From the NCBI GenBank assembly GCA_973895155.1, contig OZ316891.1, positions 10,479,875 through 10,543,874 on the forward strand: a stretch of DNA of 64,000 nucleotides, written 5' to 3'. Positions 34,322-64,000 of this stretch are shown in pieces (the first letter of the stretch is position 1; every line of letters starts with the position of its first letter). The translations under genes were made by a program, and so were the position numbers. The DNA comes from Marsupella aquatica. Lineage: Eukaryota; Plantae; Marchantiophyta. The notes under the pieces are model-generated. The model saw only the letters and a list, made by a program, of their open reading frames with translations. It did no database searches and was not told the origin of the DNA.

Positions 34322-34768
34322 ATGCCAAGGACGCGCAGCAGCTTGGGAGCTGACCTTGAAAGCAGAGCTGAGAGGCTACGCCTGAAGCTGAGTGGAATGA
34401 GGTTAGTGCCTGCCAGTTCTGCTGTGCAATGGGAGTATTCGCCTGTACATAGAGACACGTACAGTCGGCCCATTACTCTGGATGCTCCACCCTTGCCCAT
34501 AGGTTTTTGTATTGTGGCAGTTGATAATGGAGTGGTACAACCAGAGCAGATATGCTACTCTGCCTGTATCCACAGTTGTGAGGATTTTTGCCCAAAATTT
34601 CGAGTGCGCCCAGGGGATATATATAGGCGGGATGGATACAATAGGCTACAGAGGAGGTGTGCCTGTATAATATTCCACCATGATGAGCCAGTCTTGGGAC
34701 CAGGGGTTGAGACTGTTTGCCCTAGAGTAGAGCAACACTTACTGGAGAAAGACCAGTATCAATTCTGA
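34322..34768 (+). CDS. Hypothetical 148-aa Cys/His-containing protein, CACTA-2 cargo
   Basis: Uninterrupted ORF MPRTRSS...CYSACIHSCEDFC...RRCACIIFHHD, GC-richer than its flanks; no family recognised. Confidence 0.5.
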   Translation: MPRTRSSLGADLESRAERLRLKLSGMRLVPASSAVQWEYSPVHRDTYSRPITLDAPPLPIGFCIVAVDNGVVQPEQICYSACIHSCEDFCPKFRVRPGDIYRRDGYNRLQRRCACIIFHHDEPVLGPGVETVCPRVEQHLLEKDQYQF

Positions 34769-39619: not shown

Positions 39620-42600
39620 CAGTGAATGCAGCGAATACCTCCATATGAGGAGGAACGAAATAAGAAGGTAGCAGACAACAATAAAAAATTTAGGGAGATA
39701 TTTGGAGAAAATTTCAATTTCATGTGAGTATAATCTTGCATGTTGTTTTGAATGTGCAAAGATGTGTTAATATTGCTCATCAACAATATGAGTTGGTTTT
39801 TGGTACTTGTCATTCATTCATTGATATTCTCTGATGTAGATTGGGTGCAACACAGACCGTAGGGCGCAAGAAGGAAACAAGTGCACGTCAAACTCCTAGA
39901 AGTGAGGTTACCACACAGAGGAGACAGAGCTCCAGACTATCAAGAATTGCCTCAGTGATTATGGCAGAGTCTGGTGATGAGGGCTCTGAATCAGATTATG
40001 ACACTGATGCTGAGTACAGTGAAGATGAGAAACCAGAAAGTTCATCCAATGTGAGATTCCTATTACATTTCACCAACATTATGAGGAAACTATAGACATT
40101 GGTAATGATTCTGTTTAATAACATTGGTTTTAATTTGATCTAGACAGGAACATCTGCAACCTCCATCTAAGAGCTTGGCAGATGCAAAAGAAACCCCTAC
40201 AAAGGTTGGACCTTCCATGAGTGGCATGGTGCAATGTTACAAAGACCCTGTGACCAGCTAGTTGAATGTAAGTAATTTCAAAGATTTTTAATGTATTTTT
40301 CAATGTTGATCTATATGAATGTTGGATTCATAACTCCAGTGGTTTGCATGTGTATAGTGGTGGTTCCATCAACATCAATTGGGAAATCTGGACACTCTGC
40401 CGTAATGACATCCAGTCAGGGTTCAGGTAAGTCAAATTCAATGAAACGTCCTCCTATTATATTATAATATTTCTTCTCCCTCATTTTCCAATTGTGGATG
40501 ATCAATATTGGATGCTCATTGTGTATGTAGAGGGAAGAAAGACTGCAACAGAGCAACGCAGGGAATCTAGGCAAGCCAAAAAACAATTCCAGAGAACCGG
40601 TAGTGCAAGAAGGGCTGACAATAAGAAGGGAAAATTGATAACGGTAAGATTTTCATTGCACATTTCACATTTGTGGCCTACAGTTTGTGTACTCAGAAGC
40701 AATTGGGTGTTTGTTTCATTCCCAATGTTGATGACTATCATTTGTGGTGTTTTTTTAGATTCATGACAATGATATTGATGATTCTTATCCTAATAAACCA
40801 TATTGGATGGAGGAGCTACGTGCCAATGTCTTGAGGCTTTTTGATGTATCAGAACCTGATTGGAACAAACAAGATCCAAACATAATTGAGGATGTGCAAA
40901 ATTGATGAAGGCAGATTGGGAGTATCCAGATAAGCAGTCAGTGTCTGACAAGAAATTTATTAGTCACTGTCGAACGTTATTGAAAAGAGAATGTCACAAA
41001 CTAAATACTTATTGGAAGGATGTATGTAAACGTGATCGCTCCAAACCAGGACCTCAATATGTTGACCCATTGAAATGGGCACGACTGGTGGATCATTTTG
41101 ATAGTCTTGCTTTGATTGCAAGGAGTGCTGTGATGAAAGCAAGGAGGGCAGAAGTGATGAACAAAGAGCATTTTGGAAGAGGAGGGGCTGCTGGAGCAGA
41201 AAAAAGATTGGTAAGAATCTTCATATGGTCCATCTCATTGCAGGTCTAGACTGTTGGGTATTTACTCTTACGTCTAGGTTAGGTATGACGTGGTTGGTAC
41301 AACAACGTGGGTTGGTACAACTATGTGGTTAGGTACAACTACGTGATTAGGTACAACTATGTGGTTAGGTACAACTACGTGATTAGGTACAACTATGTGG
41401 TTAGGTACAACTACGTGATTAGGTACAACTATGTGGTTAGGTACAACTAAGTTGCACACTATATCATAAGAGGCATGTGTGCTTGGAGAGGTAGGACCAA
41501 GGCTCATTGTTATGGAGCCACTTGAGAGATAGAGAGAGCTTACACTGTGGAGACTTGGTATAGCCGACGGGCTTAGAGTTCAGTAAAGCTCTCTTGTGTG
41601 TTCCCGTGGACGTAGCCTCAAGGAGGTGAACCACGTATCTCTTGTGTCGACTATTGTGCGTTGGATGGTTCATGGGCTTGTCGTTGCGATCGTCATCTAT
41701 GCTCAACATAGACTGTCATTTGAATTGAAGTGTTTATCTAGTATAGGAATAAACAATGATATGATGAGTTCTCATTAATATTCCAATTGCTTTGAATATG
41801 ATTATGTGTTTCCAGAAAGCAAAAAGAATGACGAGCCCTGTTATATCAAAACTTGTGTCTAGTAGTCCAGTCCCCCCAATGCAGATCAGTCCATCTATGG
41901 GCAGTGGTGAACATCGAGGCAGCAGTTTTGTTGGAATTGGATCTGCACATGGATCAGCGATATGTAATGAAAACCTCTGTATATATTCAATTTTGATTAT
42001 CAGTTATCCATGATGTTCAAATTATCATTAATGATTGACATTGTATGGTGTGTTTATGTATGTAGACTCCACTGTCCAGGGAAACTACAATTGAGGAACC
42101 AGCTCGATTACTCAAGCTTGAATAGTCTGTGGAGAATTTAACCAAGCTTGAATTCAAAGTGGACAATTTGACATCTATGATGACTTCTTTCATTGCACAA
42201 AATCAACAGAATCAGTTCCATATGCAATTATCAAATGCAATTGCTACTAAGGTGGTGGTTGAGCCTAAAGGTAGTAGCAGGAAACGTTCTCTTACTTTCT
42301 CAGGTGATGGTGATGGTAAGAACATACAAACTTATACTCTAAATATATTACATATGCAATAGTTTATTTTTCAATTTAGAATGAAGTTTTCTAAGCATTT
42401 ATTGTTTGGTTTTGTGGTAGCTTCTTCAGGGGAGAATCCTATATCACAACAAGAGAAATCAGATACTTTAACAAGGCAGAAGCCAAAGCCAAGTATGGGA
42501 GAAGCAAATTTGGGAGCACTGCAGGAACCTTGCGTTGTACAAAGTAGCATTGGTAATGGTGAGAGTGATGAGATTGCTGTCACAGATGAACAGATAGTGT

Positions 42601-43429: not shown

Positions 43430-43601
43430 ACATTATTTAAAAACACTCTGTATGACACCCTCAATGACACCATATATGACACCATGTATGACACCCTCAA
43501 TGACACCCTGTATGACACCCTCAATGACACCCTATATGACACCCTGTATGATACCCTCAATGACACTCTCAATGACACCTTGTATGATACCCTCAATGAC
43601 C
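43430..43601. repeat. 12-bp tandem repeat (TATGACACCCTC/AATGACACC), CACTA-2 subterminal array, resuming at 55121-55205
   Basis: Direct reading; the array continues after the MULE insertion. Confidence 0.9.
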
Positions 43602-44314
43602 GGGTATGATAGCCATGACAGAAAACAGAAAACAGAAAACCTGTTACCAGGGGTTTATTTTCTGTTAACAGGGAAATTGTACCTGTTACCAGTAAGCTTG
43701 TCCCTGTTACCAGTTTTGCCTGAACCATAACGTGCATATCCACCACTCTAAGGTGCATATCCACCACTCTAATGGCATAATTTTTCGGGGGGCAATAAAG
43801 TTTAAAACAAACAATTATTTTATGCCATCCGATGGATGAAGTGTACTATCAATCCTCCATTGACACAACAATTTATTGTAGAAGATAAAAAACATGGTAT
43901 TAGGAGTGTGCCTAAAGAAACATTCATGCAAATTCATCTATTTTCATCGCCAAATAGTGACCCTTAGAGTGGGACCCACCATAGCACATGTCAATCGTGG
44001 AGTCCAAATCAACCCAATCTAAAGGAGTTGATTAAATGGACCTTGTAACGTCACAAACAAATGACAAATCACATCCTCGAGGCTTTGAAGACAGTAGACA
44101 ATTTAATCAACTTACACATTTTAAATAAAACAAGAGGTCATTCTTCCACAATGCACGTACATAATGAAGCAATGAATATCCAGTTTCCTAGAACCAGCGC
44201 CTTGCGCTAACCAACAAAGTCTCAATAAAACAACTAAAATATCCGTTGGAAAAAGACAAAATAGGGAATAATCGTTATATTGAACGACGACCTATTGGGC
44301 AGTTTCAATCTCTC

Positions 44315-47300
44315 TCATAAGCCATTCAAGTTCTGCCTCTCCAGCACAAGTCTGACTTCGCCTAAAGTCAAAATAGGTTGGCTACAAAGAGTCGACTCCT
44401 CAATCTCAAGTTTGAAAACATTTATGTACACCCAGTATAGATGTTTGCAAGGCATGTACGACTTGCCACGCGAATGTCGGAGGAAGAAGTCTTCACAAGA
44501 GCAAGCGGGGAAGATACAGATTTGGACAAAGTATGTGCTTGGTGATCGATGGTTCTCATGGGTTCGAATTCGAAATTGCTTTCCAAAAGCATTTACGGTC
44601 TGAACATTCCATTCCCCATCCAAACTCATCACTTCTTATCGTGCAGACTCCATTCGCTTCGTGTGACCCACAGTGAGATTAGACCGAGGCCTTGAGTTCC
44701 TCCCATTCCGACTACCAAGTCGGAGATTCGGCTCCAAAAACCTTATTGTTTATGGGAACACGTTAACATTTATCCTGAGGTCAAAAGCAGATGGCGCAGA
44801 TCGACTCAATCCTGTTGTTCGCTCTAAGACAAGTCCTTGCTCTTCCAGTAATTTCAGAAGGAGACAGGCTCGTACCCTTCAGAACAGGAAAAATGTCAGG
44901 AAAAGGAGGAAGCTTCTAAACACCATGACGCGGATGACTCTTGTAACATGCTTGGTTCGGGCAAAACCAAATCATTTTGGAGATGGGTTCGCCCCTGAAG
45001 AGACGATGGCCCTTCACGACAATTCCGACAACACCTTCAGACGAATGGAAGCCAACCTTCTTGATACAATTTCGACACTCATCGCGATCCGAACTCCCAT
45101 TCAGTGTACCATTGCATTGCGGACCTGCTCCATACTTCGATGTCCGTCGCAACTGCCACTGCCCCGGAGGGACATCCTTCTCTAGCACAATCGTGCGTGG
45201 AAGTTGATTCTGAAGTGCTGCTGGGGCACTGAGCGGAGGTTTTGAGGATCTTGTTGTTCGGGTTGTTTGAGGAGTATAGTCCAGTGAATCAGTATCACTC
45301 TCTGATGTGACCATACCTGAGAGATTCACCGCCTTTGTGATAGGATGATCAGAACTTGAGGGAATAGAAGAAAAGTCAGTTCTGTTCAGGTTCTTCCTTT
45401 TCAAACCACGAGTATTTGGTGTGGTTATTAGAACGGTGTCATGCCGATGGGAATCTTGTGGAGAGACATTCCCAGTTGCATGTCCCTTCCTCTTCATTGA
45501 CTTCGTCATTATATCTCCATTCAGGGGAGTACTTCTTTCCAAATCGAATTCTGCTGCGTTAGATAGAAGCATATTAGTCGCTTCTTCAAACAATCTTGGC
45601 AAACCTGCTTAATCGGCGGAACGGAACGCCAATTCCCATATAGTTGGCCCCTTCCCCCGGTTCAAGCCTTTACGGTATGCACTGTATCCGGCAACTTGAG
45701 ACAGCACGGTTTTGGTCAACTTCGCAAGCTTCATAAAGACCGACCTTTTTCTTTGTAGCCGAGGCTTTCATGGACGCATGCCTTGATTCTGACCTTGTAC
45801 AGTTGGGGATCAAGGCACCTTCCTCAGCGCTTTTGCTCTGCCATACAAAAATGTCAATCGTAAGTAGTATTCTATTACCAGCGCCCGACGCTGGCAACAT
45901 AAATATGTAGAACAGGCCTGAAATACAATTTCAATGTTTAATACTGAATTCTAACTACATATTGGCTTCAATTTCTTGTACTACTTGTTTTGACGTGTAT
46001 GGAGAAAATAACCAGCGCCTGGCGCTAATATGAAGTTGATGAACATTACAGTCTAGATAGATGGATGCCTTACCACTCGAATAAAATTGCCCCACTGGCG
46101 CCAGCAAACAACCCACCAAGATATCCAGCTTTGCAGCATCTTCAGCTTTCCGGGGACACAGTTTCCTGATTGCCACCACACAACAATCTCTCGGGACACC
46201 CGGTATGCTGCCACAAATGATGGAGCATTTCTTAGTTTCTCCCAAAGTCTCCGATGCTCCGATTGACATTCTTCCAGTACTCCTTCCTTGGAATGACGAT
46301 GAAAAGATTGATAAAAGTGAAATGCATCAGAGCGCTCCCTCTCCGGGTCCGGGTGTCCACCAAACAAACATTTCGCACTGCATTCCATCCAGCTTGTGCA
46401 TTGTCGGCCATAAATCCTTGGATGACAACCTCCTGAAGTTCATTTTCTTTGCAAACCTCAATCATCACTCTCCATGCCTTTTCAAAAGACTCAGTGTCTT
46501 CACCTTTCAACTCGCATGTGAAAATTGTACACAGTGCACGGAAATTGTGGTCGTAGACGTGTGCGCTGAAAGTAAACCAATCCGTGGTGACACGCTGCAT
46601 CACATCGAAACTTACCCAGGCTCCTTCGAGTCTTCCACCCGGTTGCATCTGCCTCAAAAGATCCACACCCGAACCGTGACCTTTCACGGTCATTTTAAAG
46701 ATGTGAGGCCTATCATTCTGACATCCCTGACCTGGAAGCAAATACCTCTGGAGAAACGATACATGAATCCTCCTCTGCATTTGCGAGAGAAAATCTAATT
46801 CACCCCGACCTTTTTGGTCTATCCTAACTCTCCGACAAAGAGATGCAAACTTCTGCGGAGTGGAAAGGACCATCAGAGACTTCCATATTTCAGTTTCTTC
46901 GATATCGACCATGTCGTCAACATGTTCATAGAGAGATTTCACTAAGGACCCTGTAGCAGAATTCAAGATCCTTGCCGGTTTTGACAGAGGATTGGCTTCA
47001 TGTTTTTTTTAATTAGATCCTCAGCTATCTTCTCCGCACTCCTACATAAGGTTTTTCTACTTGGATGGTTGTGCTCACCTATATGAATTGCCAGGTGGGA
47101 CATATGACTACATGTTTCCGCATCAAGTAATACTTGGGGGTACATGTAAAACAAACGGGCAGTGCAGTACTTCACACAAAAAGGAATCTGTTCGTAGTAA
47201 TGACAAACAACACCTCCCTCTTCGATGAAAGATCCCACAGCATACTGACCACTGAGCTTTGGAGTACCCTGCCATGCCTTAGCATTTGCCTTCTTCTTCA

Positions 47301-48057
47301 TTTGGAAATAGTCGCAGGACTTGTTCCTGCATTCAATGAATCCCGTACAGGTAACCTTCCCAAACTGCCAAAGGTTTTTAGGATGAACAGTTGCAGTTGT
47401 TGGAAATATGCGTGTCTAAATGTAACAATCTTTGGCACGATCCATGTCCCTAAGCCTAGAGCCTTTAGAGAGCATCTTATCAATGGGCGGCAACTCAAAC
47501 ATGACGTTACCATTGTACTTAGTTGGCAGACAGGACACTTGTTCATGCCTGAAATCACCCACTGATATGAACCGTGACAACTCACTATGACCAGTTGATT
47601 TGAGTAACGTATCCATCGCATTGCGCCGGTACACGACCTCCAACTGCTTAGAGCTTCCCGGAGTCTCAGCTTTCATGACAACAGGGAGCAGGATTTTTTT
47701 CTTCGACGGTGGACTTAGAGTACGATCTCCATCCTCACTTGAAGAAATCTCAACCACATCACATGGAACTGGCGGGAAACTGGACAGCCCTGCATGCTGT
47801 CTTAAATGAACCGAGTACGAGATCCCTGCGTAGAGATGCCAAAACCGTTCACCGTCATCGACATTGAACGTTGCAGCATCCTCGATATCATCAATGGATT
47901 CGAGCTCTCGAACAATGGCCTCAATGTCATTCATCTTCAAATCAAATCTCCCGGAAAGATACCTCTCCCGGACCTGCTTGTATGTATATTCCATGGGGAT
48001 GGGGATAGTCACAATATCTTCAGAACCGAATCGAGAAAGAACGATAGACCGAGACAT
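44315..48057 (-). pseudogene. MULE transposase (Zn-ribbon DNA-binding region, DDE core, C-terminal SWIM finger), disrupted
   Basis: C..C..LAIHIGEHNHP; WVSFDVMQRV; GFMADNAQAGWNAVR; DAFHF; SESRHASMK; SWIM PACSCEDF..PCKHLYWV. Intron at about 46074-45839; frameshifts and stops. Confidence 0.85.
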
Positions 48058-49021
48058 GGTGAACAAAAACAAAAACCGAGGGCTATAGCGTTTGAAAGAA
48101 GAAAAGTTCATGGTATTGTTCAGCTTATATTTGTCGAACCTGGGAATTTGACGTTAACCGATCCGTTTGTATACGACATAAAACATAGACGATGGAGGAT
48201 CCGTTGGCACCATAAATGATTTTTGTCGTTTTTTCCCCGATAAGTCCGGATGTCAGACACGAACATATTGCTAAAAAGATCACCAACCTTACTTAAACAG
48301 ACCGTAAGATATGACAAGGTATTGTCAAATTTTAGTAGCGCCTGGCGCTAACTAAAATACGCCACTAAAAATGTGTCTGAAATCTCGACATTCCAAACTA
48401 GCGCCCGACGCTAGTATAGAATAAATTCCCTGAAAATGAACATTATGACCACATACCAGGTGGTAATTGGGAATAAATGGTGCCTTCAAAGGATGGTTTT
48501 GATGGATTATGGATGATAAATGAACATTTATACTAGCGTCGGGCGCTAGTATTACATTTGAGAAATATTTCTCCGTAAACGATGTACTGAAGGACACTTT
48601 AATAAAATATGGGGGTGGAAAGGCCAAAATTTATGTCATAGCTCCTTCAAAAAAGACCTCTAAATTTCTTCCAGTTTATACTAGCGTCGGGCGCTATTAT
48701 AAGCATACTCTAAATTGTTCCCCTTGATGGTCATCATTAATGCTAGCGCCCGGCGCTAGTATTGATATGATGTTAGGAAATGTCTTTAACGGTAACATTT
48801 AACGGTAACTTATGACTTCCGTGTGTGTTACGCATCTTCTACCGTTTGATTTTGGTAATTAAACCTTCCGTATACAGACGTTGGAAACCGCCAAACATCA
48901 GAGCTAATGGCTTTCCTCTAGGTTATGTCTTCCTCCCGCTAGAATATATTACACATTCAGAGATGATTATAGTTCCATAATTTCATTGTACGATAGTTCG
49001 TACGCTTCTAGAAGGAAGACG

Positions 49022-52000
49022 ATGGAGGTATTTCCCTCTTCTTCCAGAGGGTATAGTGCGGTTCCTGACCAGGAGCGAGCTTATTTTGAATCTTCGCAGT
49101 CTTCATTTACTGGTTCAGTCTATACACGTTGTATAACTCGTTCCTCAAAGTTGTTGCCGCTCACTTCTATCAGCGGTGTTTTGGGTCCAAATCCTTTGCG
49201 AAGAAAGATGGACAACGTAGACACAATTGTGATCTAGGATGTTGCGGATTGCGCGCTTGCTGAGACTGATCTCATTTTGAAACATGTCATGTCTTTTGGA
49301 AAGGATTCTCATGGATTTGACAAGGAGCCGCCTCGAATCCCTCTGTGTCGATTGGTTCACATGGAGGTGGTTCGTACTCTGCAGAAAGACAGCTCTTCCA
49401 TCGAGAAGCTGAAAGACTCTTTTCGTAGTATGGGTTACAAATCTTTGACAGGGATGCATTTCTATGTGCAACCAACGGATGAGAACAAAATTGTTCTGAC
49501 CTATACCCAGGACATTCGTGATTCATGGGATCCAATATGGCAATTGGAGAACGAGAAGTTTGAGGCTGAATGCGAGGCTGACCCGGATTTTCTCGTCTTG
49601 AAGGATAAGATGTTCTCTGTATTCGATGGAAATCACAGGCTGTACTCCTGGACGCTTGTAACAGAGGAGAACCCGGACAATCCAAAATATCATCCTCGTG
49701 TGCTCTGTACAATATTTAAAGGAGACAAGGGATCTCTCATTGAAATTGAGGCAGCTATGCACACCGTGAATCAGTAAGTTCTCATGATTTCCAGTTCTTT
49801 CCTTAAATCTTGCGAGTGTTGTATTTACTAGCGCTCGGCGCTGCTTATACATGAATTGTTTTTCATTGACTCTTACTCTCAACGTTTGTTCGTCTAGGCT
49901 TGGCCAAGCAGTTGTAGAGCCTTCTTGGATCCTGGATGCGGACAGAATCAAACAAATTCTGGCGCATGACCTTGAGTATTACAGTAAACTGATTGACCCG
50001 GGTAATTTCAAGAAGTTTGAAAGCATTCGGCTGAAAACTCGGAAGGGGTCATGGTATACGAAGAAGATGCCACAAGAAGCACTTGTTTACATTCTTTGTG
50101 AGAATAAGATAAAGTCGTACTCGCATCAATTCAAACTCGACATGGAGGCAGCGGAGGCTCAAGGGAGTCCATGGTCGGCGGATGAGATTTCAAAATGGCA
50201 TGCGGCCATGATGAAAGACGCAACCAAAGATTGGGCAGTGAAGTCTTCAAAAATTACGCCCTTATTAAGTCCTGAATTTGAAAATTTCCTCAGTACATGT
50301 GCAGAAATGTATGCTGTCACAGAGAGAAACAAGAGAGAGAAGAAGACTGACACCGTTGTATGTACGATGGACCGCGCACGATTGTTCACCGCTGTTTCTG
50401 CTCTAGACCCAAAGTTACGAAGCACTTTACTTGTGGCACATTGCAATCCTGAGCTGCGGAGACAGTTTTTTCACCTAGCAAGTGTTAACGATGATCCAGT
50501 CAAATAGTGGTGCCACACTTGGATCACTTGGAATAGTGTGGAGGGAATTGCTGCTGGCATGTTACATTCATGTCTACGTGAAGTTGAGCAAACCATGCCC
50601 GCGAAGAGATTGGAAGAGTGGAATTGTAGTTCGTTTGATGATCTAGTTCAGTTTGTTACAAATGAATTCAAGAGATTTGGTGATTCCGTGAAGAATAAGT
50701 TCTTTCACACTATGTGGCCTTCAAAGTACCCTGACAAAGAAGATTACACCCAGAGAAACCAGAAGCGAGCGAAGAGGTTTGTGTATAGGTTCTACATGCA
50801 CATGGAGGTAACCAAACCTGATTACTTCTGGGCATATCCTGCAGCTTTTATGAAGTGGATTTCAATAAGTGAAGATGATGCCTTGGCTGATTTGTACTCT
50901 ATGTACCCCACAAAGGGCATATTTCCTCCGAGACCAATGACAGAATGGGAGAGAACTCACTGCCCCTGGTATCTAGATACAGATAGATGGGATTCTCCTT
51001 TTGATCAAAGGGAAAAAGATGCCTTCCATAAGCTTTCAAAGTCTCAGATGCCAGCAAAACTTGTGTCCGACATGAAGCAGGGTCTACTTGACGATGTAGA
51101 CAAGTCTGCCACAAACTTGCAAACTATCTGTGAAACAACTGTTGTGCATGTGGACCGGAGTCGCAAACCTCGCGCGAAAGCCAAAGCGGAGCTAGCAGCA
51201 CCGAGCGAGTCTACTAAATCTGGAAAGAAGAGTAAGTATTGCTATCCATGATTTTGCCAGCGCCAGACGCTGGCAAAAAATATTCTGTTGAGGGTATTCT
51301 TTTTCTTGGTTATTAGGCTTCGGTTGCGACTTAAGTGAATTGCATTTGGTTAGCGCCAGGCGCTAGCTTCTTTCAATACTTTAAAAGTACTTATTCTAAC
51401 TACGACCTGGTTATATTTTAGGAGGGAGGAAGTCTAATACGGTGGGAACGGGAGATCCAAAAAAGGATGCTACACCTGAAGTTTCCGAGGCAAACACGGG
51501 AGCTCAATCGGACCCCATTACTCCAGTCGACAAAGGGAAGGTTATAGTTCCTATCGACGCCACGAGTACCAGGAAGAAACGAAAGAGAGCTGTCAAAGGT
51601 GGACAATCTTTAAGGGAGAGTGTTATAGCTTCTGGTTTCCAACGTGAAGTTGGAAACTTCAAAACAACTGTGTCTCGCCATTGCATGGTTGAGACAAGCC
51701 TTTCTGAATTTTTTGACTCGACGTTCAACAAGGAGGAGAAGCCCGAGTGGGTTAGTGATGTGGAGAAATGGGGAAAAGACCTCGTTAAGTTGGGATTTAA
51801 AGAGAAGGGAGTTGTTCGGGGGGGAAAAGTAAGATCGTTTGGAGTGGATGCCGGCTTCATTTACCTACCGACCGGGTTCAAACCATCTATCATTGATAAG
51901 AAGGTTCCTAAATGGAACATTCCAGATCACTCAATGGCTAGATCTTTTTTCAAATCCATGGATCCATTTTTATCAGATGATGGGTTCCTTGTAATTCTAC

Positions 52001-53112
52001 ACAATGGGGAGTACGATCCCATGTCGCAAGTCATTGCTGCCTGTCAGGAGTCAAGGAAATTTTAGTGTATATGCTTGCATAATGTTGTGATGTCTGACCC
52101 GATGTATGCGGCAAAGATAGACCGAGAGATGTTTACCCTCAGGCTCGACATATTTGGCCGAATTAATGGGAAATGTAAAATTCCCAAAGACCCCAAATTT
52201 CGGCCGCTGTCCATCAGTGAGGACCCTTCGGTTACCAATTTGATTGGACTCTCTTCGCTCAAATCAGATCCATTCCCGCAAATGGAGTTTGTTGGAAATG
52301 CTCGTCTGTCTGTGGGTTTTATGCAATCTGTTATAGAGCTTGTCACACGGCCTCGTGATATTTTTATGGATTGGACTGCTGGGGCTGGAAGCTCTTACAT
52401 TGCTGGCGACTTCTCTGGATGATTTGTACTCGGGATAGAACACCGGAAAGAATTTATTGAAACCGCTTCAAAGGTTTTCATGGATTTGTTGTCTCCCAAA
52501 GAGATTGCAGTGTTACCTCCACCTGTTCCTACTGCCGACAAAAAAAAGAGAGATAAGCTTCGGTCGGTTCTCAATTTTGATTCTGATGATGAATCGAGTG
52601 AAGGTGGAGAGGAACAAGGTACAAGAAACTCCGAGGAGGAAAAGGGAGAGCGTCGTGCAGCTGCAGATGAAACCGATAGTGATGACTCTTCCGAGTAATG
52701 TTCATAAACTCGTAAGCTTCTTTCTCCATTCCCGTCAATTCATAACATTTCTTTTGTTGTTTTGGGGAAAGGCGCCTTACAAAATGGACTTTGTTATATC
52801 AGGTCAGAGTGGAATGCAAGGAGACGATTCAAACTGCGGAGGAAGATCGCGAGACACAACTTAGAAACACCAGAAAAACCGTTTGTTCTTCCCTCCTATG
52901 CAGAGAAAGCCGCAAGGAAAGCAGAAAGTGCAAGGACACTTTGTTGGGAAAACAAAGGTCTTTGGTTACGAAGGGGTGTTGACCGAAAGTTCATTAAACA
53001 TCCTTATGTTGATGACTTCTCCCGCAGCCAGTACGTAGATGATGAGGCTGTGTCCACGAACAGATCCTAGAGTACAGATTCTGGTTCCGATTCAGAATCT
53101 TCGGAACCATGA
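49022..53112 (+). pseudogene. MULE cargo gene: N-terminal ParB/Srx-like domain fused to a C-terminal beta-class amino-DNA-methyltransferase-like domain; 4 exons, 5 in-frame stops
   Basis: ParB-like IPLCRL..VR..IEKLKDSF..GY..VFDGNHRLYSW. MTase-like VDAGFIYLPTGF..WN..FLSDDGFLVILH..SVIELVTRPRDIFMDWTAGAGSSYIAGDFSG*FVLGIEH. Introns about 49774-49888, 51232-51421, 52695-52802. Stops at 49235, 50505, 52063, 52420, 53068 all read through in frame. Confidence 0.75.
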
Positions 53113-53384
53113 GAAGTAGTGGGTAGTTGAGGCTAAATCTTTTAGCAGCACCCGGCGCTTGTAACATCTGTATTATTTCCCTCTGCTGAGGGTCCTTTTA
53201 AATTGTTGATTTCTCTCTACTTGTTGATTACTTTTGACTTCTATTCTTTACAAGCGCCTGGCGCTCGCCAAATGGAATCTCTAAATGGCCGTTTAGTCTT
53301 TGTCGTTTCCTGTCAATGGTCATCGTCATTGGATACCAACTGCCATTTGGATTGTGTTCTTTAGTCAGTCGTCGAAAAGCCGTT

Positions 53385-53800
53385 GGGGACCATAGTTTCG
53401 GGACAATGATTCCATAGTTTAGGGACCGGGCGGAAGGGACGACTATAGTTTCAGTTTAGGTTTGTTCGGGATGACGAGAGTTGGGGACGTCGATAGTTGA
53501 GGACGACGATAGTTTCGGGAGGACGATAGAATGGGACGATAGAACGGGACGATAGAACGGGAGGGGAGACTTTGTTTCAGGAGGACGATAGAACGTGACG
53601 ATAGAACGGGACGATAGTTCGTTTGGGAAGACTTTGTTTCGGGAAGACGATAGAACGGGACGTTAGAGCAGGGCGATAGAACGGGACGTTAGAGCAGGGC
53701 GATAGAACGGGACGTTAGAGCAGGGCGATAGAACGGGATGATACCTGTTACCAAGGCGAAGATAGTTTTGGGAGGCAATAGAACGGGACGATGATAGTTT
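53385..53800. repeat. Tandem array GGACGATAGAACG (13 bp) and a 25-bp variant inside the MULE
   Basis: Repeated GACGATAGAACGG and GTTAGAGCAGGGCGATAGAACGGGAC units. Confidence 0.85.
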
Positions 53801-56800
53801 GATGGTCGTTTTGGAACGGTAGTGTACGCGGACCTTTATCTGGCGTCTTAGTCTTTGCGGACCTTTCTTTGGCCTTTGTCGGCTATAGCACTCGCGGACG
53901 ACATTCTTATGGGAGGAGAGGTTACATATTAGATCGGGATCTTTGAAACATGGTGAGTCAGTATGAGCCAATGGATTGGGAGGCAGCTTTTCGTCCTTCT
54001 CGTGTGCGTCCGGAAGAGAGCCATTTCAGCTCTTTTGAATCGCGAATGGAGACTGAAGAAACTGAAACTTCCACTTTTCGGAACCGTCATGCTCTCCCGT
54101 ATGATGAGGCTATTAGTCCTGGAGAGAAGAACATCCCTTGGATTGTCGATTCCCCTGCGCCTCCGTTCTCTAGTCGGTTTTCATCTCACCCGGGAGTTCT
54201 TGTTGATGGGGTACTCCCAATCAATTGAAGAGGACAAGAAATGTTCGGGCGAGTTGATTTTAAGGACAGTAATATTCCTAATGAACATTTTACGAGGGCT
54301 GTTCATCGAGGACCTTCAGAGGGATACGTTCGTTTGCGTGGTCTCGGCTTCAAGAAAGATCGGCGGAGAGAAGCAGCAGGAGTGGATGATGATTGCAACT
54401 CGGAAAGCTAGATGGAAATTTTGTTTTGCTGATCGCTTTAAGCTAGCGCCGGGCGCTGCTAAAGTTTTCCGGATTTTGTGGCATTGAAGTCGACCTCAGC
54501 TCTGGCGTTAGGGTTTTCCCGGTTGTCTACTATTTAGGTTTTGGCTAGCGCCGGGCGCTATTGAAACGACAACGGATTTTGTGGGAGGGAATGGATCTTG
54601 ACTATGTTGTCTGGGTTTGGATGCATCTTGTCTCCAAGAAACGACTAGTTTTCTAGTTAGTTTTTGGCTAGCGCCGAGCGCTTTTCATGTATTAGTCGAA
54701 AACCTCCGACGGTGTCGACCGTGACTTCATGGATGGGATTTTTAGGCCAGATTGTTGATGTTGATAACTGCATTTTGTATCACTTAAGTCGAGCGCATTT
54801 TCTATTTTGCGATAATATATGCAAATGTTTTTTCCGGCCTTTCTTTTCTACTTGTATTTGTCTTGGATTTTGTGTATCTCAATTGGCAACCGTCTTTTAT
54901 GTTTCAAAAAAAAATTTCCGTGTTGTTCTTTTATTTATCACGAGGGTTTGGTGGTTTTGGTTTCTATTCTTGTACTTTCAAATGGAGATTTTGAGACCTT
55001 TTTTTAAGATCACTGTTCACGACCATCCAAACACTGTTCACTGGTAACAGCTCCTTTTAACTGGTACCAGAATCTATTTCCTGTTACTGTTATCTGTTTG
55101 CTGTCGTTTGTAAATTCCCCCAATGACCCCTTGTATGACACCTTGTATGACATTTTTAATGACACCATGTACGACACCTTCAATGACACACTAAATGACA
55201 CCTTAAATGATTTATTATTGTGTCATTTATGACATGTCTGAAATGACATATAATGACAACCGTGCGTAGTTGCCACGTGTTGTAATATGATTTGTTTAAA
55301 TATGTGTCATTAAAGATATGCCTAAATGACTGACGGCCGTTCATTCAGTCATTTAGGACAACATGTCATTTCAGAAATATTGTGTCATTTAGGACTACCA
55401 TAAATGACTGGTGAGAGTTTTAGTCATTTGTCTTAATTGACTGTCCTAAAAGACGAGGCAGGTATGACAGAAAAGCTCTAGTCATATATTGGTACATATG
55501 ACTCATTTTTCAGTCCTCATTCTAGTCATTAAGGACACTATTTTCCACTAGTGTATCACAAGGATCGAGCATCGACCTTCAGCTCCATGGGTGCTTCCTG
55601 TTGGCCAGAGAAGGGAGTTTCGGAATCGCATAGGAGACATGCGGTTTCCTATCAATTATGGTGCCAATCTCCGAAAGGCCTTTGGGATGGAGGACAATCA
55701 TAAGTGGCCAAGGTATCTCAAGACACATGACTACCATAGGTTACTGCAGCACATATTGCCTGTGGCCATAATAGGTTTGGCAAGTGAAGAAGTGCAAGAT
55801 GCCCTTTGGTCATTGGGAAAACTTTGAGATGGGTATGCTCTAAGAAGATATATACTGACGAAATCCCTGGGATGGAGGTTTTGGCAACAGAGGTAGTATG
55901 CAAGTTGGAGAAGGCCCTTCCTCCTTCCTTTTTTGACTGTCAAGTGCATTTACTTGTTAATCTTGTTCATGAGGTGGCCATTGCAGGTCCTATGCATTGT
56001 CGGTGGATGTATTGGCTAGAACAATACATAGTAGTGTTAAAAGGTTATATACGTAACCGATTTCTATGAGGATGCCAAAAGTAACAGAACAAGATCAACA
56101 ATTTTTCCAAAGTACCTTGACTATATGAAGGAGAAGTTAGTTGAGGTGGATGACATGGTGGTCAGGGGAGAGAGTGTATAATTACATTTTCCAGCTATCA
56201 CAGAATGATGATGTTTGTACCATTGTTCATGGTCCCTTGAGAGTGGTTATGTCAACAAGGACAGCAATGTGGACACAAGGAAGACATTTCAGGTGATCTC
56301 CATCTACCTTAGTAACCTTTTATTTGAATCACTTGGTTTAATTTAATTCATTTGTAATTGATTTCACAAGCACGTATATTGAAGAGGCAGATTCTTGGTG
56401 TGTTCCATTAATTGGAATATGTTTGTGTCTATTTTTGTGTAACATGTCCTTATGGTTTGATGAATTTTAGGATTTCTTCCCTTGATGAGAAGAGGGGTCG
56501 TACCTTTGATTGTGGAGTCCAAGGACAATTCTCTCAAGATTCTCGCAACAGTCGCCATGACACGAATATTATTCGAGATATTGTGTCACATTATGGAAAG
56601 GTAGAAGAGATTCTAGTGATATCTTATGATGCACAATCAAAGTTTGAAGAGTATGTCTTCAAGTGCAAGTGGTTCAAAGTGAACCTTGCAGGTAACAATC
56701 CTACTGTGGTTCAAGATGAGTGTGGATTTACACGATTGAAGATGTCTGCCACTAGTTTCCAGCCATCTCATTGGCAAACATCAGAGCCGTTAACTTTTCC

Positions 56801-59800
56801 AAGTCACGTGGAACAATGTTTCTATATTTCATACCCCCCAAACCCAGAGGAATGGTCACTTGTCATCACATATGTGCCACGGTCTCGTTTAATCGTTGGG
56901 GAAAAGCCTAATATTCTGGTTGTGTCCCAACCTGAAGATGATGAGGACCAAGTTTGAGGAGTTTGTGTTTGTGGATATATAGCTACACGGATATATAGTT
57001 AGATTTGACGATATGAAGATTTCTCTTCTCGGTAGAATGGAGAAATATGTGCTTCTCAATTATTAATAAACTTATGTTTTGTAAGTATATTATTTTCAAA
57101 TATTGTTTTCTATATCTCCCATCCCTACCCCACACTCACCACACCTTTTGGTAGACTTTCTGCAAAGAAAACTCATGTTGCTTGTAGTCCTCTATCCTCC
57201 GTGCTTTCCTAATCCCCCCTAGCCTTTCTCCTTATTACTTGTACCCACCTCCCTCCTCCTTTCTTTCATTGTCTGTCCCTCTTATTAAACCCTCCTTCCT
57301 CCTTCCTCTCCTTGTCCCAACCCCTTTCTATTTCAACCCTATACTTTCCTTACTTTCCACCCCTGTCCCCCACTCTTACCTATACAACCTAGCTTCTCTC
57401 CTCCCTCCTAAACCTATACCCTTAAACCTCCCTCATTTCCTTGTCCCTTTCTAAACCAATACCCTCCCTCCTTTCCTTGTCCCTCTCTAAACCCTAAACT
57501 CCCTCCTTTTTATTTTCACTCCCTAAATCCAAACCCTCCCTAAAACTATATCTACATACCCTTCCTCCTCCCTCATTTCCTTGTGCCCCCTAAACCTGTA
57601 TTCTCCCTCTTGGATCCCTCCGTTCCTTGTCCCTCCTAGCCCCATTCCCTTCCTCCTCCTTTACTCTCCCTCCCCAATCCCATTCCTTTTCCACCTCTTT
57701 GAAGCGCTCATAATATTTTGCGAAACATCTTGCAAAACCCCGACCCCCGCAAACTCATCGCTAAATTTGCGATACTAAAATGCTCGCTAATTGCCATCAT
57801 AAACTTATCACAAACTTCCAAAGAGACCACCCTCTCAACGTTGCGAAACCAAAAACTTCACAAAATGAGACCCTAGACAGGCACAGGATTTGCGAGCCTA
57901 TTACTATCGCAAGTTAGCCATTGCGTAAACATCGCTCATTTGCGAGACAATAAGGCTCGCAAAATAGTTTGAGATGCTAAAATATTCGCAACTTGTTAGT
58001 TGGCCGGCGCATCGCAATGAAACTGCGAAGCGGTAAAGATCGCTAAATTTTTCAATGATAATTACTTAGGAAATTTTTTGCGATACGTGAAGTATCGTAA
58101 AATGTTGCGATCGTCTAAGTTTTGCAATTACGTGTTGCGATGTGGATAGATTTGCTAAGTGCGATGCGTATCGTATCGCAAGTTTAGCGATGAGATTAAT
58201 CTTGCAAAGCTTTCTTCCTCCTGTAAAATGCCTTCGCAAAATTGGCAGATATGTAGTAGTGACTATGGAGACTTGGTATGGCCAACGGGCTTAGAGTTCA
58301 ATAAAGCTCTCTTGTGTGTTCCCGTGGACATAGCCTCGAGGAGGTGAACCACATATCTCTTGTGTCAACTACTTGCGCGTTGGATGTGTCATGTGCTTAC
58401 TGTTGCGAGTGTCATCTATGCTCAACAATTCCTTGAGTGCAAGGTGCATTGGCTTGACATATGTGTGTAATCAGATCGGACCGGATCGAGCACGTATTGT
58501 TGGCATCGATCGTTGTTTGGATTCTATTGAGATTATTGTGGATTTGGACATGTGTGGACATGAGTTCCACTTGTATTTAATTCTCTTGTGTTTGTGATAT
58601 GGTAGTGTGATTATGTCTGGATGTATGTGACAAGCGATGTATGTTGTGTAGCGATGAGTATGCGCATGACACATATCATGACAAACATTTTGAGGTAGAT
58701 TGATCTCTTCAAGAATTGGAGAGAGTATTTTCAGCACACTGATGAGTACCATGAATATTTGTGGGCGATCCTGGATATGTTGGAGCAGACAGCTTCATCA
58801 TACGCAGGTTTGGTGGGACAAAAGATACTCAAGGCATGAGTGTTGGTACTTTGAGAGCATGGAACAAAATGCATGTTGGATACAAAATCAAAGTTGAGTG
58901 GGGAATCAAGGGAATGAAAAGAAAATGGCATCGACTGATGAAAGGATATGATTTGCGGAAGTGCAAATTCAAAGAGTTCCTTCAAGCTATAGTTCTATTG
59001 ACAAATTTCCTCCAACGGAAACAAAATGATTTCAGTGAAATGATAGAGGGGGAACCAATTGAAGACAATTATGAAGCAGCATGGTTGGGTTGGAGACTAC
59101 CCAAGAGAGTTTGCCATGTACAGAAAATCAAAATATTAGATTGAAGTGTGGGCGGACAAAATTTGCTCTATAGCAATTTCCTGAAGTTCAAAATTTTGTA
59201 ATGTATGAGTTAATGATTAATCTAAAATCATTTGTCAATGCTGCTATCTATCTAAAATCTGTTCAAACTACATAGATTTTGAACTCATGAGCTACAGTGT
59301 CAAAATTAGCTGTACTTGCTCTTTGAAGGTCTCTTCCAATATGCATCCCAGGTCCCTGGCCTTTTTCAGGTTGTTGATTTTGATCTTTTCCTGTAGTAAG
59401 CTTTCTCCCTATATGAAGCAGGTGGCTTCTTTTGTTTGGGGACTTGGGACTTTTGAGGATAATGTCTCCTAGTTTGAATAACATTGGCTTCTTTTGTTTG
59501 GGGACTTGGGACTCTTGAGGTTAATGTCTCCTAGTTTAAATAACATTAGCCTGATTGCCCCTTCTTCAAACATAAAGAAAGGCTAAACATTTTTGGTGGC
59601 CATTTTCAGAAACTAGCCCTGCCCCCAATCAATGTTTTCCACTAGCACCCTCAATTTCAATTATGTTCCCAAAGTCCGAGTCTAGAGGTTTCGATCACTC
59701 AAGACAGGTAGGCCCTCAAGTGTAATAGAGGTCTCTAGACAATATAGTGTAGTTAGATTACATAACTCGTGTAATATTGTCAGCGCTTCTGGCAACAATG

Positions 59801-61021: not shown

Positions 61022-62730
61022 ATGGAAGCATTGGCGAGCACCAGCTGCTGCACGAGAGGATCGGCGTTGGTAACACAATGGTCAGGACTGAGGAAGCAGT
61101 CAGGCAAAGCTGCACTTCCTGCTAGCGCTGCTGGTGCTCTTCCACAGGGGAAGAAGGCGGCCTCCAGGGTGGTCAGGATGGCGTTGGCCGTCGACCAGAA
61201 GGCTTATGTGACCACGAAGTCCGAGGAGATCTTCGCGGCTGCGAAGGTTTATGGCCTTTCTACACGCGCTTCACTTCGCTTGAATTTGTCCACAGCTTAG
61301 GAAGCACTCTGTGCTGACAGAGACTTTTTTCCTGCCGTGTGGCAGGAGCTGATGCCGGGAGGTGTCAATTCCCCCGTGAGAGCTTTCAAGTCTGTAGGTG
61401 GTAGCCCCATTGTCTTGGACCGGGTGAAGGGCTCTCGTTCCTATGACGTAGACGGAAATGAATATATCGACTATGTAGGGTCCTGGGGCCCTGCCATCCT
61501 TGGCCATTGTGATGACCAGGTATAATCTCAAAGAAGAGCACCAATATTCGTTCGATTGGTTAATGTCTTGCAAATCTCCTTAAGTTTTTCTAGTCCCCTT
61601 GATGTCAAATGCTGTTGTGCTGTTGGAATTTTGAGAAGATTCTCGTTGGGTGTTTATCTCAGATAAATGCAGCTTTGATAGAGACCTTGAAGAAGGGAAC
61701 TAGTTTCGGTGCTCCGTGTCTTTTGGAGAACCAGTTAGCTGAGCTGGTCATCGCAGCAGTCCCTAGCGTGGAGATGGTTCGAATGGTCAACTCCGGTACC
61801 GAAGCCTGCCTGTCGATGCTCCGTTTGTGCCGGGCCTATACCAAACGTGAGAAGATTCTCAAGTTCGAGGGCTGCTACCATGGTCATGCTGATTCTTTCC
61901 TAGTGAAAGCGGGCAGCGGTGTTGCCACTTTAGGTTTGCCAGATTCGCCTGGAGTTCCTAAATCATCTGCTGCGAGCACTCTGACTGCACCTTACAACAA
62001 TCTCGAAGCTGTTGAGAAGATGTTTAAGGAGAATGAGGGAGAAATTGCAGCTGTCATTCTGGAGCCAGTTGTTGGAAATGCCGGGTACATTGTCCCAACA
62101 ATCGAATTCCTCAAGGGTTTGAGGGAAATTACCAAGAAGAACGGTGCTCTCCTCGTCTTTGATGAAGTCATGACAGGTTTCAGGATATCTTATGGTGGTG
62201 CCCAAGAGTACTTCGGCGTCAGCCCTGATATCACAACGATGGGAAAAATTATTGGGGGAGGACTTCCCGTGGGTGCCTATGGTGGACGGAGAGACATTAT
62301 GGAGTTGGTCGCCCCAGCTGGCCCTATGTACCAGGCCGGTACCCTCAGTGGAAACCCCTTGGCCATGACAGCTGGGATAGAGACCTTGAAGAGATTGAAG
62401 GTACCAGGAACTTATGAGTACTTGGACAAAATTACGAAGACTCTTGTTGAGGGACTGAGCGCAGCAGCAAAGGAAGCAGGACACGAGTTTACGTCAGGAA
62501 ACATTAGGGGCATGTTTGGATTCTTTTTCCAAAATGGCCCGGTTCACAACTTTGAGGATGCTAAGAGGAGTGACACAGCCAAGTTCGCCCGATTCCACCG
62601 AGCAATGCTTGCAAAGGGAGTCTACTTCGCACCTTCTCAGTTCGAGGCAGGATTTACAAGCTTGGCCCATACAGAGGAGGATATTGCTTACACCATAGAG
62701 GCTGCCAAGGAGGTGTTCAAGTTTATATGA
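61022..62730 (+). CDS. GSA: Glutamate-1-semialdehyde 2,1-aminomutase, chloroplastic (3 exons: 61022-61246, 61346-61519, 61663-62730)
   Basis: Transit peptide, then [58 protein letters not shown] lysine [21 protein letters not shown]; canonical GT-AG introns. Confidence 0.97.
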
Positions 62731-63044
62731 ATTCCGGTGACGCTTACGACACTGAGCAAGCTGTTCACCACTCACATTTGGGTCCAGCATTGGGGTCCTG
62801 TCGTCATCAAGATTAGAATAAAATTGCCTAGATGGCCAGAATCTTTGACAGGCAACGAGGAGTCTACATCCCCTTTTTGGTGGCTCAAGTCCTCCATTTT
62901 TTGCAGATGGAGATGTGGAATCAACATGATGTTATAGCAACACTTCGTATTTTCTAAGAACCGTCAATGGATAAATTTTGTATACTTCCTAAATTTTAGA
63001 CATTACCATGCCGGAGGAGAATTTGCTTTGCAATAAGATGACAA

Positions 63045-64000
63045 CCGAACAGCGATCGATGCCAACAGTACGCGCTCGATCCGGTCCGATCTGATTACAC
63101 ACATATATCAAGCCATCGCACCTTGCACTCAAGGATTCTACATTACATAGAAGGAGTTTCGACCACCATAGCCATAACACGAGCTCCTCTCTCCAAGACT
63201 CAACACTGAAAGATAATCTTTCGATGCTTCACAAGAGAATTACCCTCTCACACAAAACTTAACAGAACTTTATCAACTCATTCAATCTATATATCAAATA
63301 TATGGATCTAGATAGTATCATACATTTTAACACTATCTAGAATGGTGTCACATATGAACCTAGGTAGCCAAAGTCTAGATAAGTGAGCAAACTATGATCA
63401 TCAATGATAATTGTATTATTTCGACAGTACATCTTCTTTCTCCCTTGAAACCAATCATTGTGATTGTAATGCGGTACGTTAGTTAGAAATGATAAAAATT
63501 CTATAAAATTTGAACTTTTTCTAACTTAGAGATGCACTATAATTATCTTTTGTAATAATTTAGATCAACTAAACACTTTAATTATCTAATGCTATGTTTC
63601 ATCGGAGGCTATTGCCTATATTGGACAAGAACTGGCAATATAAATACTTGCTCTTTGCATGCTACCAAGAAGTAAGACTGGACATCATTAGAGAAACAAT
63701 GTATACTAGAAGATTCAAGAACCGGACTCCAAAGCATTTCTTCAACAAGAATGAGCTTTGTGTGCATTTATCAAGATCAACCTATTTCACCTATTTTAGT
63801 TAAATAGTTATCACAATCAGAAAAATCTTAAACTTTTTTAAGAGGTAGTAATTACTTAGTAGAATCATCCCTTAAAGTTTGAGCTCAAACCGACATGTGG
63901 TTTGAAAGTTAAAATAATTTAGTTTTGTTGTTTTTAGCCTCGCCGCGACTTTACCGACGCTTTCAAAAATGTCCCTTGTATTTTTGGACGCTTTGTGAAG
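63045..64000 (-). repeat. Inverted paralogous copy of LTR A end, Harbinger fragment and LTR C, running off the window
   Basis: Reverse complement aligns to about 19128-19962 joined directly to 58433-58520. Confidence 0.9.

Follow-up and report, generated by a model that had tools for sequence, protein, structure and literature searches.

What is a gene that joins a ParB-like domain to a DNA methyltransferase-like domain doing in a plant transposon, and is its methyltransferase part a working enzyme? The question is raised by a stretch of 64,000 nucleotides from the liverwort Marsupella aquatica (contig OZ316891.1; here called the window), in which a first-pass annotation had read such a fusion gene, with introns and five nonsense codons. 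The gene and its setting stand, and three observations are new: motif IV of the methyltransferase has been lost across the family while the domain was under purifying selection, at least one premature stop is private to this copy, and the element carries a palindrome of its own.

The gene and its element

The fusion gene lies in a multi-copy element of ~11.5 kb, head-to-head with a broken MULE-like transposase, and the element is inserted in a CACTA-type repeat. Its placement in a plant DNA transposon is thus upheld. The features, in window coordinates, are:

43452..43600, + strand: left part of the 12-bp tandem array of the host (ATGACACC..), which the element splits; the array resumes at 55117-55210
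43601..43720, + strand: left end of the element, a terminal inverted repeat, imperfect, with GACAG-AAACAG.. and repeats of CTGTTACCAG; the exact end lies somewhere in 43598-43617
44196..54682, no strand: 16 copies of the palindrome (RCY)AGCGCC-N-GGCGCT(RGY), outside the exons of both genes
44315..48057, − strand: broken MULE-like transposase, divergent to the fusion gene, with a Cys/His-rich N-terminal part, stops and two frameshifts (~47010, ~46360)
~45837-46073, − strand: transposase intron, containing two palindromes
48058..49021, no strand: shared divergent promoter region, containing five palindromes
49022..49773, + strand: fusion gene exon 1, with the ParB/Srx-like domain at ~49238-49773, DGNHRL at 49625-49642 and a premature TAG at 49235
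49774..49897, + strand: intron 1, GT-AG, 124 nt, phase 2, with one palindrome (49830)
49898..51231, + strand: exon 2, a conserved middle region with no fold assigned, which may be the DNA-binding part; a premature TAG lies at 50505
51232..51421, + strand: intron 2, GT-AG, 190 nt, with two palindromes (51259, 51352)
51422..52694, + strand: exon 3, encoding a basic linker, the beta-class amino-methyltransferase fold (~51640-52524) and an acidic tail, with two of the stops (52063, 52420)
52695-52802, + strand: intron 3, GT-AG, 108 nt
52803..53112, + strand: exon 4, with a premature TAG at 53068 and the final TGA at 53110
55040..55117, − strand: right end of the element, mirroring the left end in inverted orientation; position 55117 is where a high-depth contig ends

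The four exons splice in frame over three GT-AG introns to give 1,222 codons, interrupted by the five premature stops (49235 TAG, 50505 TAG, 52063 TAG, 52420 TGA and 53068 TAG). We infer the splicing from the sequence and its conservation. The GC content is 36-39% in the introns and 45-46% in the exons. The position of intron 1 is common to four of five related metagenome loci (L001-L004), which are relatives ~40-50% identical, and the claim of spliceosomal introns is supported. Past intron 1 the homology of exon 2 picks up again in two related loci (E 6e-42 and 3e-17); the identity of exon 2 to L002 and L003 is 30-34%. Pfam searches gave no match for exon 2 and no relevant match for the stop-to-stop pieces of the gene.

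A search for longer homologs of the ParB domain gave no full-length fused homolog among 326 candidates. This counts for little, as intron-containing genes of this kind are split by gene callers. The link between exon 2 and the methyltransferase in Riccia is weak, a score as high being reached in 3 of 999 shuffles, and a pairwise comparison of exon 2 with Riccia was not significant (E 0.25). The named relatives are from liverworts. A tree of 18 rows, restricted to long hits and made up of plant-type sequences with one bacterial-type outgroup, separates Riccia-type from Calypogeia-type sequences; it contains no starred clade holding the window protein, and carries no information on the donor.

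The transposase was placed with MULE by Atlas (0.91), all ten named hits belonging to a single family or clan, while profile searches of Pfam and the PDB gave no match to it. By eye it contains what look like the D..D..(D)xxH..E core and a C-terminal SWIM-like CxC..CxH. The ends of the element are short and imperfect inverted repeats. An empty-site join from 43504 to 55221 occurs at a depth of 4157 in run X2. This, together with differing depths in the same run, led us to reject the possibility that the fusion gene is part of the flanking CACTA element. There is a possible 11-bp target-site duplication with one mismatch, which the 12-bp tandem repeats alongside make hard to judge; Mutator and MULE elements make duplications of 8-11 bp (PMC6446971).

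Two predicted folds and a degenerate motif IV

The C-terminal domain is strongly predicted to have a beta-class amino-methyltransferase fold. The model (pLDDT 92) is a complete, circularly permuted Rossmann fold of the beta class, and matches CcrM (Foldseek E 3.4e-12; Z 18.3, rmsd 3.4, 214 aligned). The top 11 VIA rows are all beta-class, and the profile of the domain matches DpnA in the PDB (E 1.6e-7). Of 68 rows, 25 have a match to Pfam N6_N4_Mtase, which lies over motif I; for the read-through domain itself the match was below the cut-off (E 0.0025). In the sequence FIYLPTG, corresponding to motif IV, lies at 51856-51876, N-terminal to motif I (IFMDWTAGAGSS, at 52360-52395, then G-stop-FVLGIE), which is the beta order.

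The N-terminal DGNHRL domain is predicted with moderate confidence to have a ParB/Srx-like fold. Its best Foldseek match has a probability of 0.98 and an E of 0.097, and none was at E<=0.001. KorB aligns at Z 6.6 (rmsd 2.8, 94 aligned), where a Z under 8 can arise from a common arrangement. Among the VIA rows at Z>=2, 12 of 14 are ParB/Srx-superfamily proteins; this count includes SerK, SbnI, SspE, BrxU and Dnd as members of the superfamily. The Atlas lead is ParB_N (0.92), the family being present on 11% of members, and profile searches of Pfam and the PDB gave no match for this domain. The first-pass annotation had singled out DGNHR (49625-49639). The extended DGNHRL, which contains the Box II GxxR phosphate motif (PMC12704722, PMC7333895), is invariant in 18 of 18 rows. 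Note that among purified ParB-fold proteins 17 of 28 did not bind NTP in vitro, and that the sequence does not allow one to predict which nucleotide is used (PMC12704722). The fifth related locus, L005, is distant and ParB-like (profile match probability 95.6); a methyltransferase is not supported there (probability 0.5%). Both parts of the proposed fusion therefore have structural matches, firm for the methyltransferase and moderate for ParB.

Motif IV is covered by 42 of 86 relatives and motif I by 43. None of the 42 has the canonical (D/N/S)PP(Y/F/W), and none has an aromatic residue at position 4; D or S occurs at position 1 in 8, including the Riccia-type relatives, which have D (5 of 42; one is DPPT). 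In the subfamily of the window protein position 1 is taken by Y, F or A, within [YFA]LP[TN]G, and the window copy and the high-depth contigs have YLPT. Motif I and the PxWN beyond it are conserved. Among the 43 relatives covering motif I the D is present in 42 and the two glycines in 37 each, with an acidic residue after the next strand in 40, and the downstream PxWN retains W in 36 and N in 38 of 42. In CcrM, Asp31 and Pro32 of DPPY bond the target amine (PMC10406627). As judged from the sequence, Y, F or A at position 1 cannot do so.

Copies were compared through contigs of sequencing runs. Between 51780 and 52480 there are 49 differences, of which the 40 best supported were analysed. Of these, 35 are between subfamilies; 28 of them are synonymous and 29 fall at third positions (p 2e-9), and the YLPT codons themselves carry synonymous changes. 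This pattern points to purifying selection on the methyltransferase domain between subfamilies. The remaining five differences are private to the window copy; all are C-to-T and four are non-synonymous. The stop at 52063 is a sense codon in all covering contigs, so at least one premature stop is private to this copy, and at the position of the 52420 stop a second subfamily reads Arg. Organellar RNA editing was rejected as the cause of the stops, given the spliceosomal introns, the nuclear transposon context and the sense codon in other DNA contigs.

The non-canonical motif IV noted earlier is therefore the state of the family and no product of decay; loss peculiar to the window copy was rejected. 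With motif IV degenerate throughout the family and purifying selection acting on the domain, we regard the domain as a likely pseudo-enzyme, catalytically dead but maintained.

A palindrome particular to the element

The 16 palindromes start at 44196, 45880, 46014, 48337, 48400, 48535, 48683 and 48745, and at 49830, 51259, 51352, 53147, 53253, 54445, 54547 and 54670. The candidate site is AGCGCCNGGCGCT, of 13-19 bp with the centre CCNGG. All the copies in the window are within the element, against 0.45 expected, and all 16 are non-exonic though exons make up 63% of the element (p 1.5e-7). Mismatches to the consensus are C>T/G>A in eight of nine cases. The consensus was picked after the sequence had been inspected; an unbiased palindrome scan of the window returned it as the top family, with seven perfect copies, the next unrelated family having four. 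The palindromes avoid the termini of the element, which carry the other motif, CTGTTACCAG.

The distant locus L005 has its own, different palindrome three times. L001-L004 have at most one strong palindrome each, in loci of only 1.2-1.8 kb. The distribution in the window resembles that of parS/OB or VANC target sites, and by this analogy the fusion protein likely binds the 16 palindromes of its own element, shielding or regulating it. The effect there may be protection, or self-repression of the kind exerted by KorB.

Proposed role of the fusion protein

Cargo of a similar kind, ParB with methylase, has already been reported in algal transposons. In the brown alga Ectocarpus the accessory gene of Sola1-1_Ec32 is described as encoding a ParB-like domain and an N4C/N6A methyltransferase in one protein of ~1,100-1,200 aa, on the strand opposite to the transposase of a large DNA transposon, with self-binding proposed (PMC12477816). 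The likeness is one of description; there the transposase is Sola, and here the host is a land plant and the transposase MULE-like. Similarly likened by description are accessory genes of Bostrychia/Chondrus Plavaka and Mutator elements, PAG2 (N6A methylase and SET) and PAG3 (ParB and 2OG oxygenase), which share a transposon-borne ParB-like domain beside inverted repeats, methylase cargo and proposed self-binding (10.1101/2025.02.11.637652). In the red algae, however, ParB and methylase are separate genes and the PAG3 repeats are adjoining tandem arrays, whereas here the domains are fused and the palindromes dispersed through introns and promoter. Phages fuse the same two domains (PMC12704722); the fusion protein has ~550 extra residues between them. 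A tblastn search of phages found no close relative, the best E being 0.1 (motif I only) and 1 for ParB.

VANC of the VANDAL elements is likewise a Mutator-like accessory gene, and VANC21 binds short motifs enriched in intronic, intergenic and terminal non-coding DNA (PMC5735166). Its motifs are 9-bp non-palindromic tandem repeats, and its function is demonstrated where that of the fusion protein is inferred. The KorB/ParB CTP clamps (PDB 8qa8, 6sdk) are the best N-terminal fold matches, and share the GxxR box and palindromic sites; KorB acts at a distance from its palindromic operator (PMC11790492). They differ in having GERRxRA where the fusion protein has DGNHRL, the latter being eukaryotic, spliced, fused to a methyltransferase and without ParA. 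The first-pass annotation had drawn a parallel with Marchantia DN4MT1 and rotifer N4CMT. The beta-class fold and motif order, shared also with CcrM, M1.HpyAVI and PvuII (Z 18.3 to 15.7), sustain this, although identity to N4CMT is only 10-13%. The parallel is weaker than those with the algal cargo and VANC because motif IV loss is the family state here, while MpDN4MT1 and N4CMT are active, host-domesticated 4mC writers that, like CcrM-type enzymes, keep TSPPY, SPPY or DPPY. On this comparison the multi-copy transposon cargo resembles VANC more closely. DIRS1 provides a precedent for a dead methyltransferase on a transposon (PMC4738411).

The protein might instead be an active, divergent amino-methyltransferase that places 4mC or 6mA at its own palindromes or close to them, either to block 5mC or to flag the element as active. 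Self-modification has been proposed by the Ectocarpus and Bostrychia authors, and the complete fold, the conserved motif I and PxWN, the purifying selection and the D of the Riccia-type relatives would fit. We think this unlikely, since neither a canonical motif IV nor the base-stacking aromatic is found in any of the 42 relatives and position 1 in the subfamily would be unable to bond the amine. It is similarly improbable that the palindromes are sites for the transposase or a host factor, with the fusion protein a transposition helper (e.g. a nucleotide-switched partner of the transposase) that has no sequence-specific role at them. The Cys/His-rich region of the transposase could bind DNA, no DNA-binding domain was recognised in the fusion protein, and transposases by themselves can bind and derepress cognate elements; AtMu1 transposase alone hypomethylates its cognate termini (10.64898/2026.08.24.746577). 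Yet the palindromes avoid the termini, which bear the other motif, and lie in introns and promoter in the manner of VANC, and ParB cargo is described beside inverted repeats in unrelated transposase superfamilies (Plavaka).

The five stops and broken transposase of the window copy might suggest inert captured cargo, as in Pack-MULEs, with the palindromes as by-products of duplication. This is very hard to reconcile with the synonymous bias between subfamilies, the invariant DGNHRL, the intron position conserved in relatives ~40-50% identical, the sense codon at 52063 in all covering contigs, and palindromes that are dispersed with unlike flanks.

The reading that we favour, and to which we give about an even chance, is that this is a decayed copy of a conserved MULE-like accessory gene, whose ParB-like and likely dead methyltransferase product would bind palindromes of its own element and likely shield it from host silencing. 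A dimer would recognise the palindrome, probably through the middle region (exon 2), where canonical ParBs have their HTH. A nucleotide triphosphate of unpredictable identity would occupy the GxxR pocket, allowing loading and spreading as in ParB and KorB. The methyltransferase fold would retain its contacts with SAM or SAH and DNA; instead of writing marks, it would serve as a module for dimerisation, DNA occlusion or reading. Overall this would amount to a VANC-like, sequence-specific guarding of promoter and introns against 5mC silencing. The window copy would have lost that protection, and be decaying by C-to-T change.

A rather doubtful extension is that a parS/ParB system of bacterial style operates on plant chromatin in the MULE-like transposons of bryophytes. 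A nucleotide-gated clamp would load at palindromes specific to each family, in the promoter and introns, and spread along the element, while the dead methyltransferase would grip or flip bases so that 5mC writers are excluded.

Among transposon proteins that bind their own element and give it epigenetic protection, VANDAL/VANC is the chief proven example, and the algal ParB-methylase cargo is so far prediction only. The present family adds a case from land plants, for which a candidate site can be named and intact relatives exist, in a plant group that has transformable models, and poses the biochemical question of whether the methylase is dead or alive and which NTP is used. If the clamp extension were true, it would amount to a second anti-silencing machine of independent origin, made of phage parts, a ParB-type sliding switch on eukaryotic chromatin, and a compact tool of one protein and a 13-bp site for shielding transgenes against silencing.

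The fusion gene and the element that carries it

The gene that fuses a ParB-like domain to a beta-class methyltransferase-like (MTase) domain can be read as four exons that stay in frame once three GT-AG introns are spliced out; the AT content of these introns is above that of the exons. It lies head-to-head with a broken transposase-like gene.

49022-49773, + strand, exon 1 of the fusion gene
49898-51231, + strand, exon 2 of the fusion gene
51422-52694, + strand, exon 3 of the fusion gene
52803-53112, + strand, exon 4 of the fusion gene
48057 to 44315, - strand, transposase-like gene, with stops and two frameshifts

The predicted splicing gives 1,222 codons, with premature stops at codons 72, 454, 910, 1029 and 1209. 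The intron-containing gene with five nonsense codons described in the first-pass annotation is upheld, and the motifs quoted there were all found in their places. The position of intron 1 is common to four of five related metagenome loci, in two of which homology to exon 2 resumes beyond it. The stop at 52063 is a sense codon in all the covering depth of three sequencing runs (X1, X2 and X3). Among the best-supported differences in 51780-52480 it is one of five that are private to this copy, all of them C-to-T, which argues that this copy is decaying in the manner of methylated DNA. At 52124-52127 related subfamilies have an apparent extra intron within the MTase domain that is absent from the family of this copy; the loose ends read CAG-GTAATT, and many homolog ORFs end there.

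The element, whose inverted ends are short and imperfect, begins at about 43601-43617 and ends at about 55105-55117. It is inserted in an array of 12-bp tandem units that belongs to a CACTA-type repeat. A contig of run X2 (depth 4157) joins 43504 to 55221 and represents the empty site, while the element interior has a depth of about 560-600. In X1 the interior depth is 364-429 vs 12-22 for divergent contigs. Depth suggests, as a rough estimate, some tens of copies at most. The first two-thirds of the transposase-like gene are read in one frame by six relatives from 316 candidates. The gene has no match in Pfam or PDB; its core is linked to MULE transposases by Atlas (0.91), with all ten named matches in one family or clan. 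We take its D, D, DxxH, E and SWIM-like motifs, fitted by eye, to be consistent with this. The proposed location inside a plant DNA transposon is supported. The range of Mutator/MULE target-site duplications has been described (PMC6446971); here the surrounding tandem array obscures any such duplication.

At 53512-54411 the element also contains a 13-bp tandem array (GGACGATAGAACG, ~17 copies) and, after it, a short, broken ORF of unassigned kind (53950-54411). Elsewhere in the window, at 25708-28133, a SET-domain ORF (E 1.2e-5), possibly chromatin-modifier cargo, is immediately upstream of a CACTA Tnp2 transposase; at 33171-38642 an NSD-like PHD-finger ORF (E 1.4e-8) has a second transposase, Tnp2/DUF4218, downstream of it. 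An insertion of 467 bp at 41242-41708, which includes an 18-bp tandem array, is missing from high-depth contigs of the host repeat in three runs. There is a Harbinger-type DDE_Tnp_4 fragment at 58755-59141, and host-type genes, cytochrome P450 and class-III aminotransferase, lie at 12561-14589 and 61603-62727.

A methylase fold lacking its catalytic motif

In PDB searches the single MTase-domain sequence matches M1.HpyAVI (DpnA) with E 0.0025, and a 68-row profile matches it with E 1.6e-7 and CcrM with E 7e-5. The domain model (pLDDT 92) matches CcrM with E 3.4e-12 (Z 18.3, rmsd 3.4, 214 residues), and its top 11 structural rows are all beta-class DNA amino-methyltransferases, PvuII and rotifer N4CMT included, at 10-19% identity. 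The N4C/N6A methyltransferase-like assignment of the first-pass annotation is well founded. A search over 1.84 billion representatives gave 87 relatives; seven of ten looked up were named, two from Calypogeia fissa and five from Riccia sorocarpa, both liverworts, which makes a bryophyte host likely.

Leaving out one bacterial-type match (P0084), 86 relatives were used for motif counts. None of the 42 that span motif IV has the canonical (D/N/S)PP(Y/F/W); none has an aromatic residue at position 4, and in eight of them position 1 is D or S. In CcrM the target amine is reported to be bonded by Asp31 and Pro32 of DPPY (PMC10406627). Motif I is kept among the 43 relatives that span it (D in 42, the two glycines in 37 and 37), with an acidic residue past the following strand in 40. 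The FIYLPTG of this copy is identical letter for letter in high-depth contigs of three runs. The stretch 51780-52480 holds 49 differences, and among the 40 with the best support 35 are between subfamilies. Of these, 28 are synonymous and 29 are third-position changes (p 2e-9); a pair of them sits in YLPT codons. This bias, together with the lack of any canonical motif IV, argues that the family maintains the methylase fold without the catalytic motif, under purifying selection. The motif IV noted earlier as non-canonical is indeed so, but the loss is family-wide and the domain is maintained. DIRS1 provides a reported precedent for a dead MTase borne by a transposon (PMC4738411).

The N-terminal domain (17 relatives from 47 candidates) has an invariant DGNHRL in 18 of 18 rows. 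Foldseek with its model (pLDDT 87) gives nothing at E<=0.001 but ranks ParB and sulfiredoxin highest (E 0.097, probability 0.98). A wide structure search is headed by KorB (Z 6.6, rmsd 2.8, 94 aligned), and members of the ParB/Srx superfamily make up 12 of its 14 rows with Z>=2. A ParB/Srx fold is likely from these models, though not proven; the ParB-like reading has moderate support, and profiles run against Pfam and the PDB gave no match. The middle region of the protein, a conserved stretch of 444 residues, has no Pfam match. At a distant metagenome locus, L005:436-3190 is a ParB-like ORF with DGNHRL and a weak Pfam DndB match (E 3.7e-4), in which no MTase was detected.

A palindrome specific to the element

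A palindrome absent from the first-pass annotation came from the follow-up. AGCGCC-N-GGCGCT was first chosen by eye, and comes out top when GC-rich palindromes of the window are scanned without bias. There are 16 copies at <=2 mismatches vs 0.45 expected, all within 44196-54682. All 16 are outside the exons of both genes (p 1.5e-7), and these exons make up 63% of the element. The shared promoter has five copies, 3′ or terminal DNA six, the introns of the fusion gene three and the intron of the transposase gene two. The symmetry reaches about 19 bp (RCY..RGY), and eight of nine mismatches are C>T/G>A. VANC21 sites are reported to have the same distribution (PMC5735166), and ParB/KorB operators to share the form (PMC11790492). 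The metagenome loci L001-L004, which are short, have at most one palindrome each. In L005 a different palindrome of ~24 bp occurs three times.

A second clustered family, GGACGCTT..AAGCGTCC, has nine degenerate copies at 18548-19173, and a homologous block in inverted orientation lies at about 62900-64000; GGACGC..GCGTCC upstream of the ParB exon of L002 is similar to it.

Possible role and known systems

We give an even chance, the best among the readings considered, to the intact fusion protein being a self-targeting accessory factor with VANC-like protection, each functional step of which we infer. A dimer would bind the palindromes, loading and spreading may be switched by an NTP at the ParB pocket, and the dead methylase could be a SAM-binding, dimerising or DNA-occluding module, the outcome being VANC-like shielding from 5mC. 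Of 28 ParB-fold proteins assayed elsewhere 17 are reported to have bound no nucleotide, and the identity of the nucleotide was not predictable (PMC12704722); the role of the ParB GxxR motif has been described (PMC7333895). An active divergent writer seems unlikely. We rate similarly low the chance that the palindromes are transposase-bound sites, for which AtMu1 is a reported precedent (10.64898/2026.08.24.746577). The effect may also be KorB-like self-repression rather than protection. That the fusion gene is inert cargo is very improbable.

The fusion gene here is real, and genes of its kind are already known from algae, where self-binding is proposed. Iyer et al. 2011 is cited for green algae in the algal-transposon literature. 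Ectocarpus Sola1-1_Ec32 is described as encoding, opposite in strand to its transposase, a 1,104-aa protein that combines ParB with an N4C/N6A methylase (PMC12477816), and red-algal Plavaka and Mutator elements as carrying ParB cargo accompanied by inverted repeats and, separately, methylase-SET cargo (10.1101/2025.02.11.637652); the authors of both propose self-binding. MpDN4MT1, in contrast to the window family, is reported to have TSPPY and to be active (10.1101/2021.02.12.428880). In literature including few subscription journals, no transposon of a land plant turned up with a gene like this one; Bostrychia Table 6 and DN4MT1 Fig. S4 may bear on this. What is new here is the land-plant, MULE-like setting, the family-wide pseudo-catalytic methylase and the element-specific non-coding palindrome, the last of which makes the idea of self-binding directly testable.
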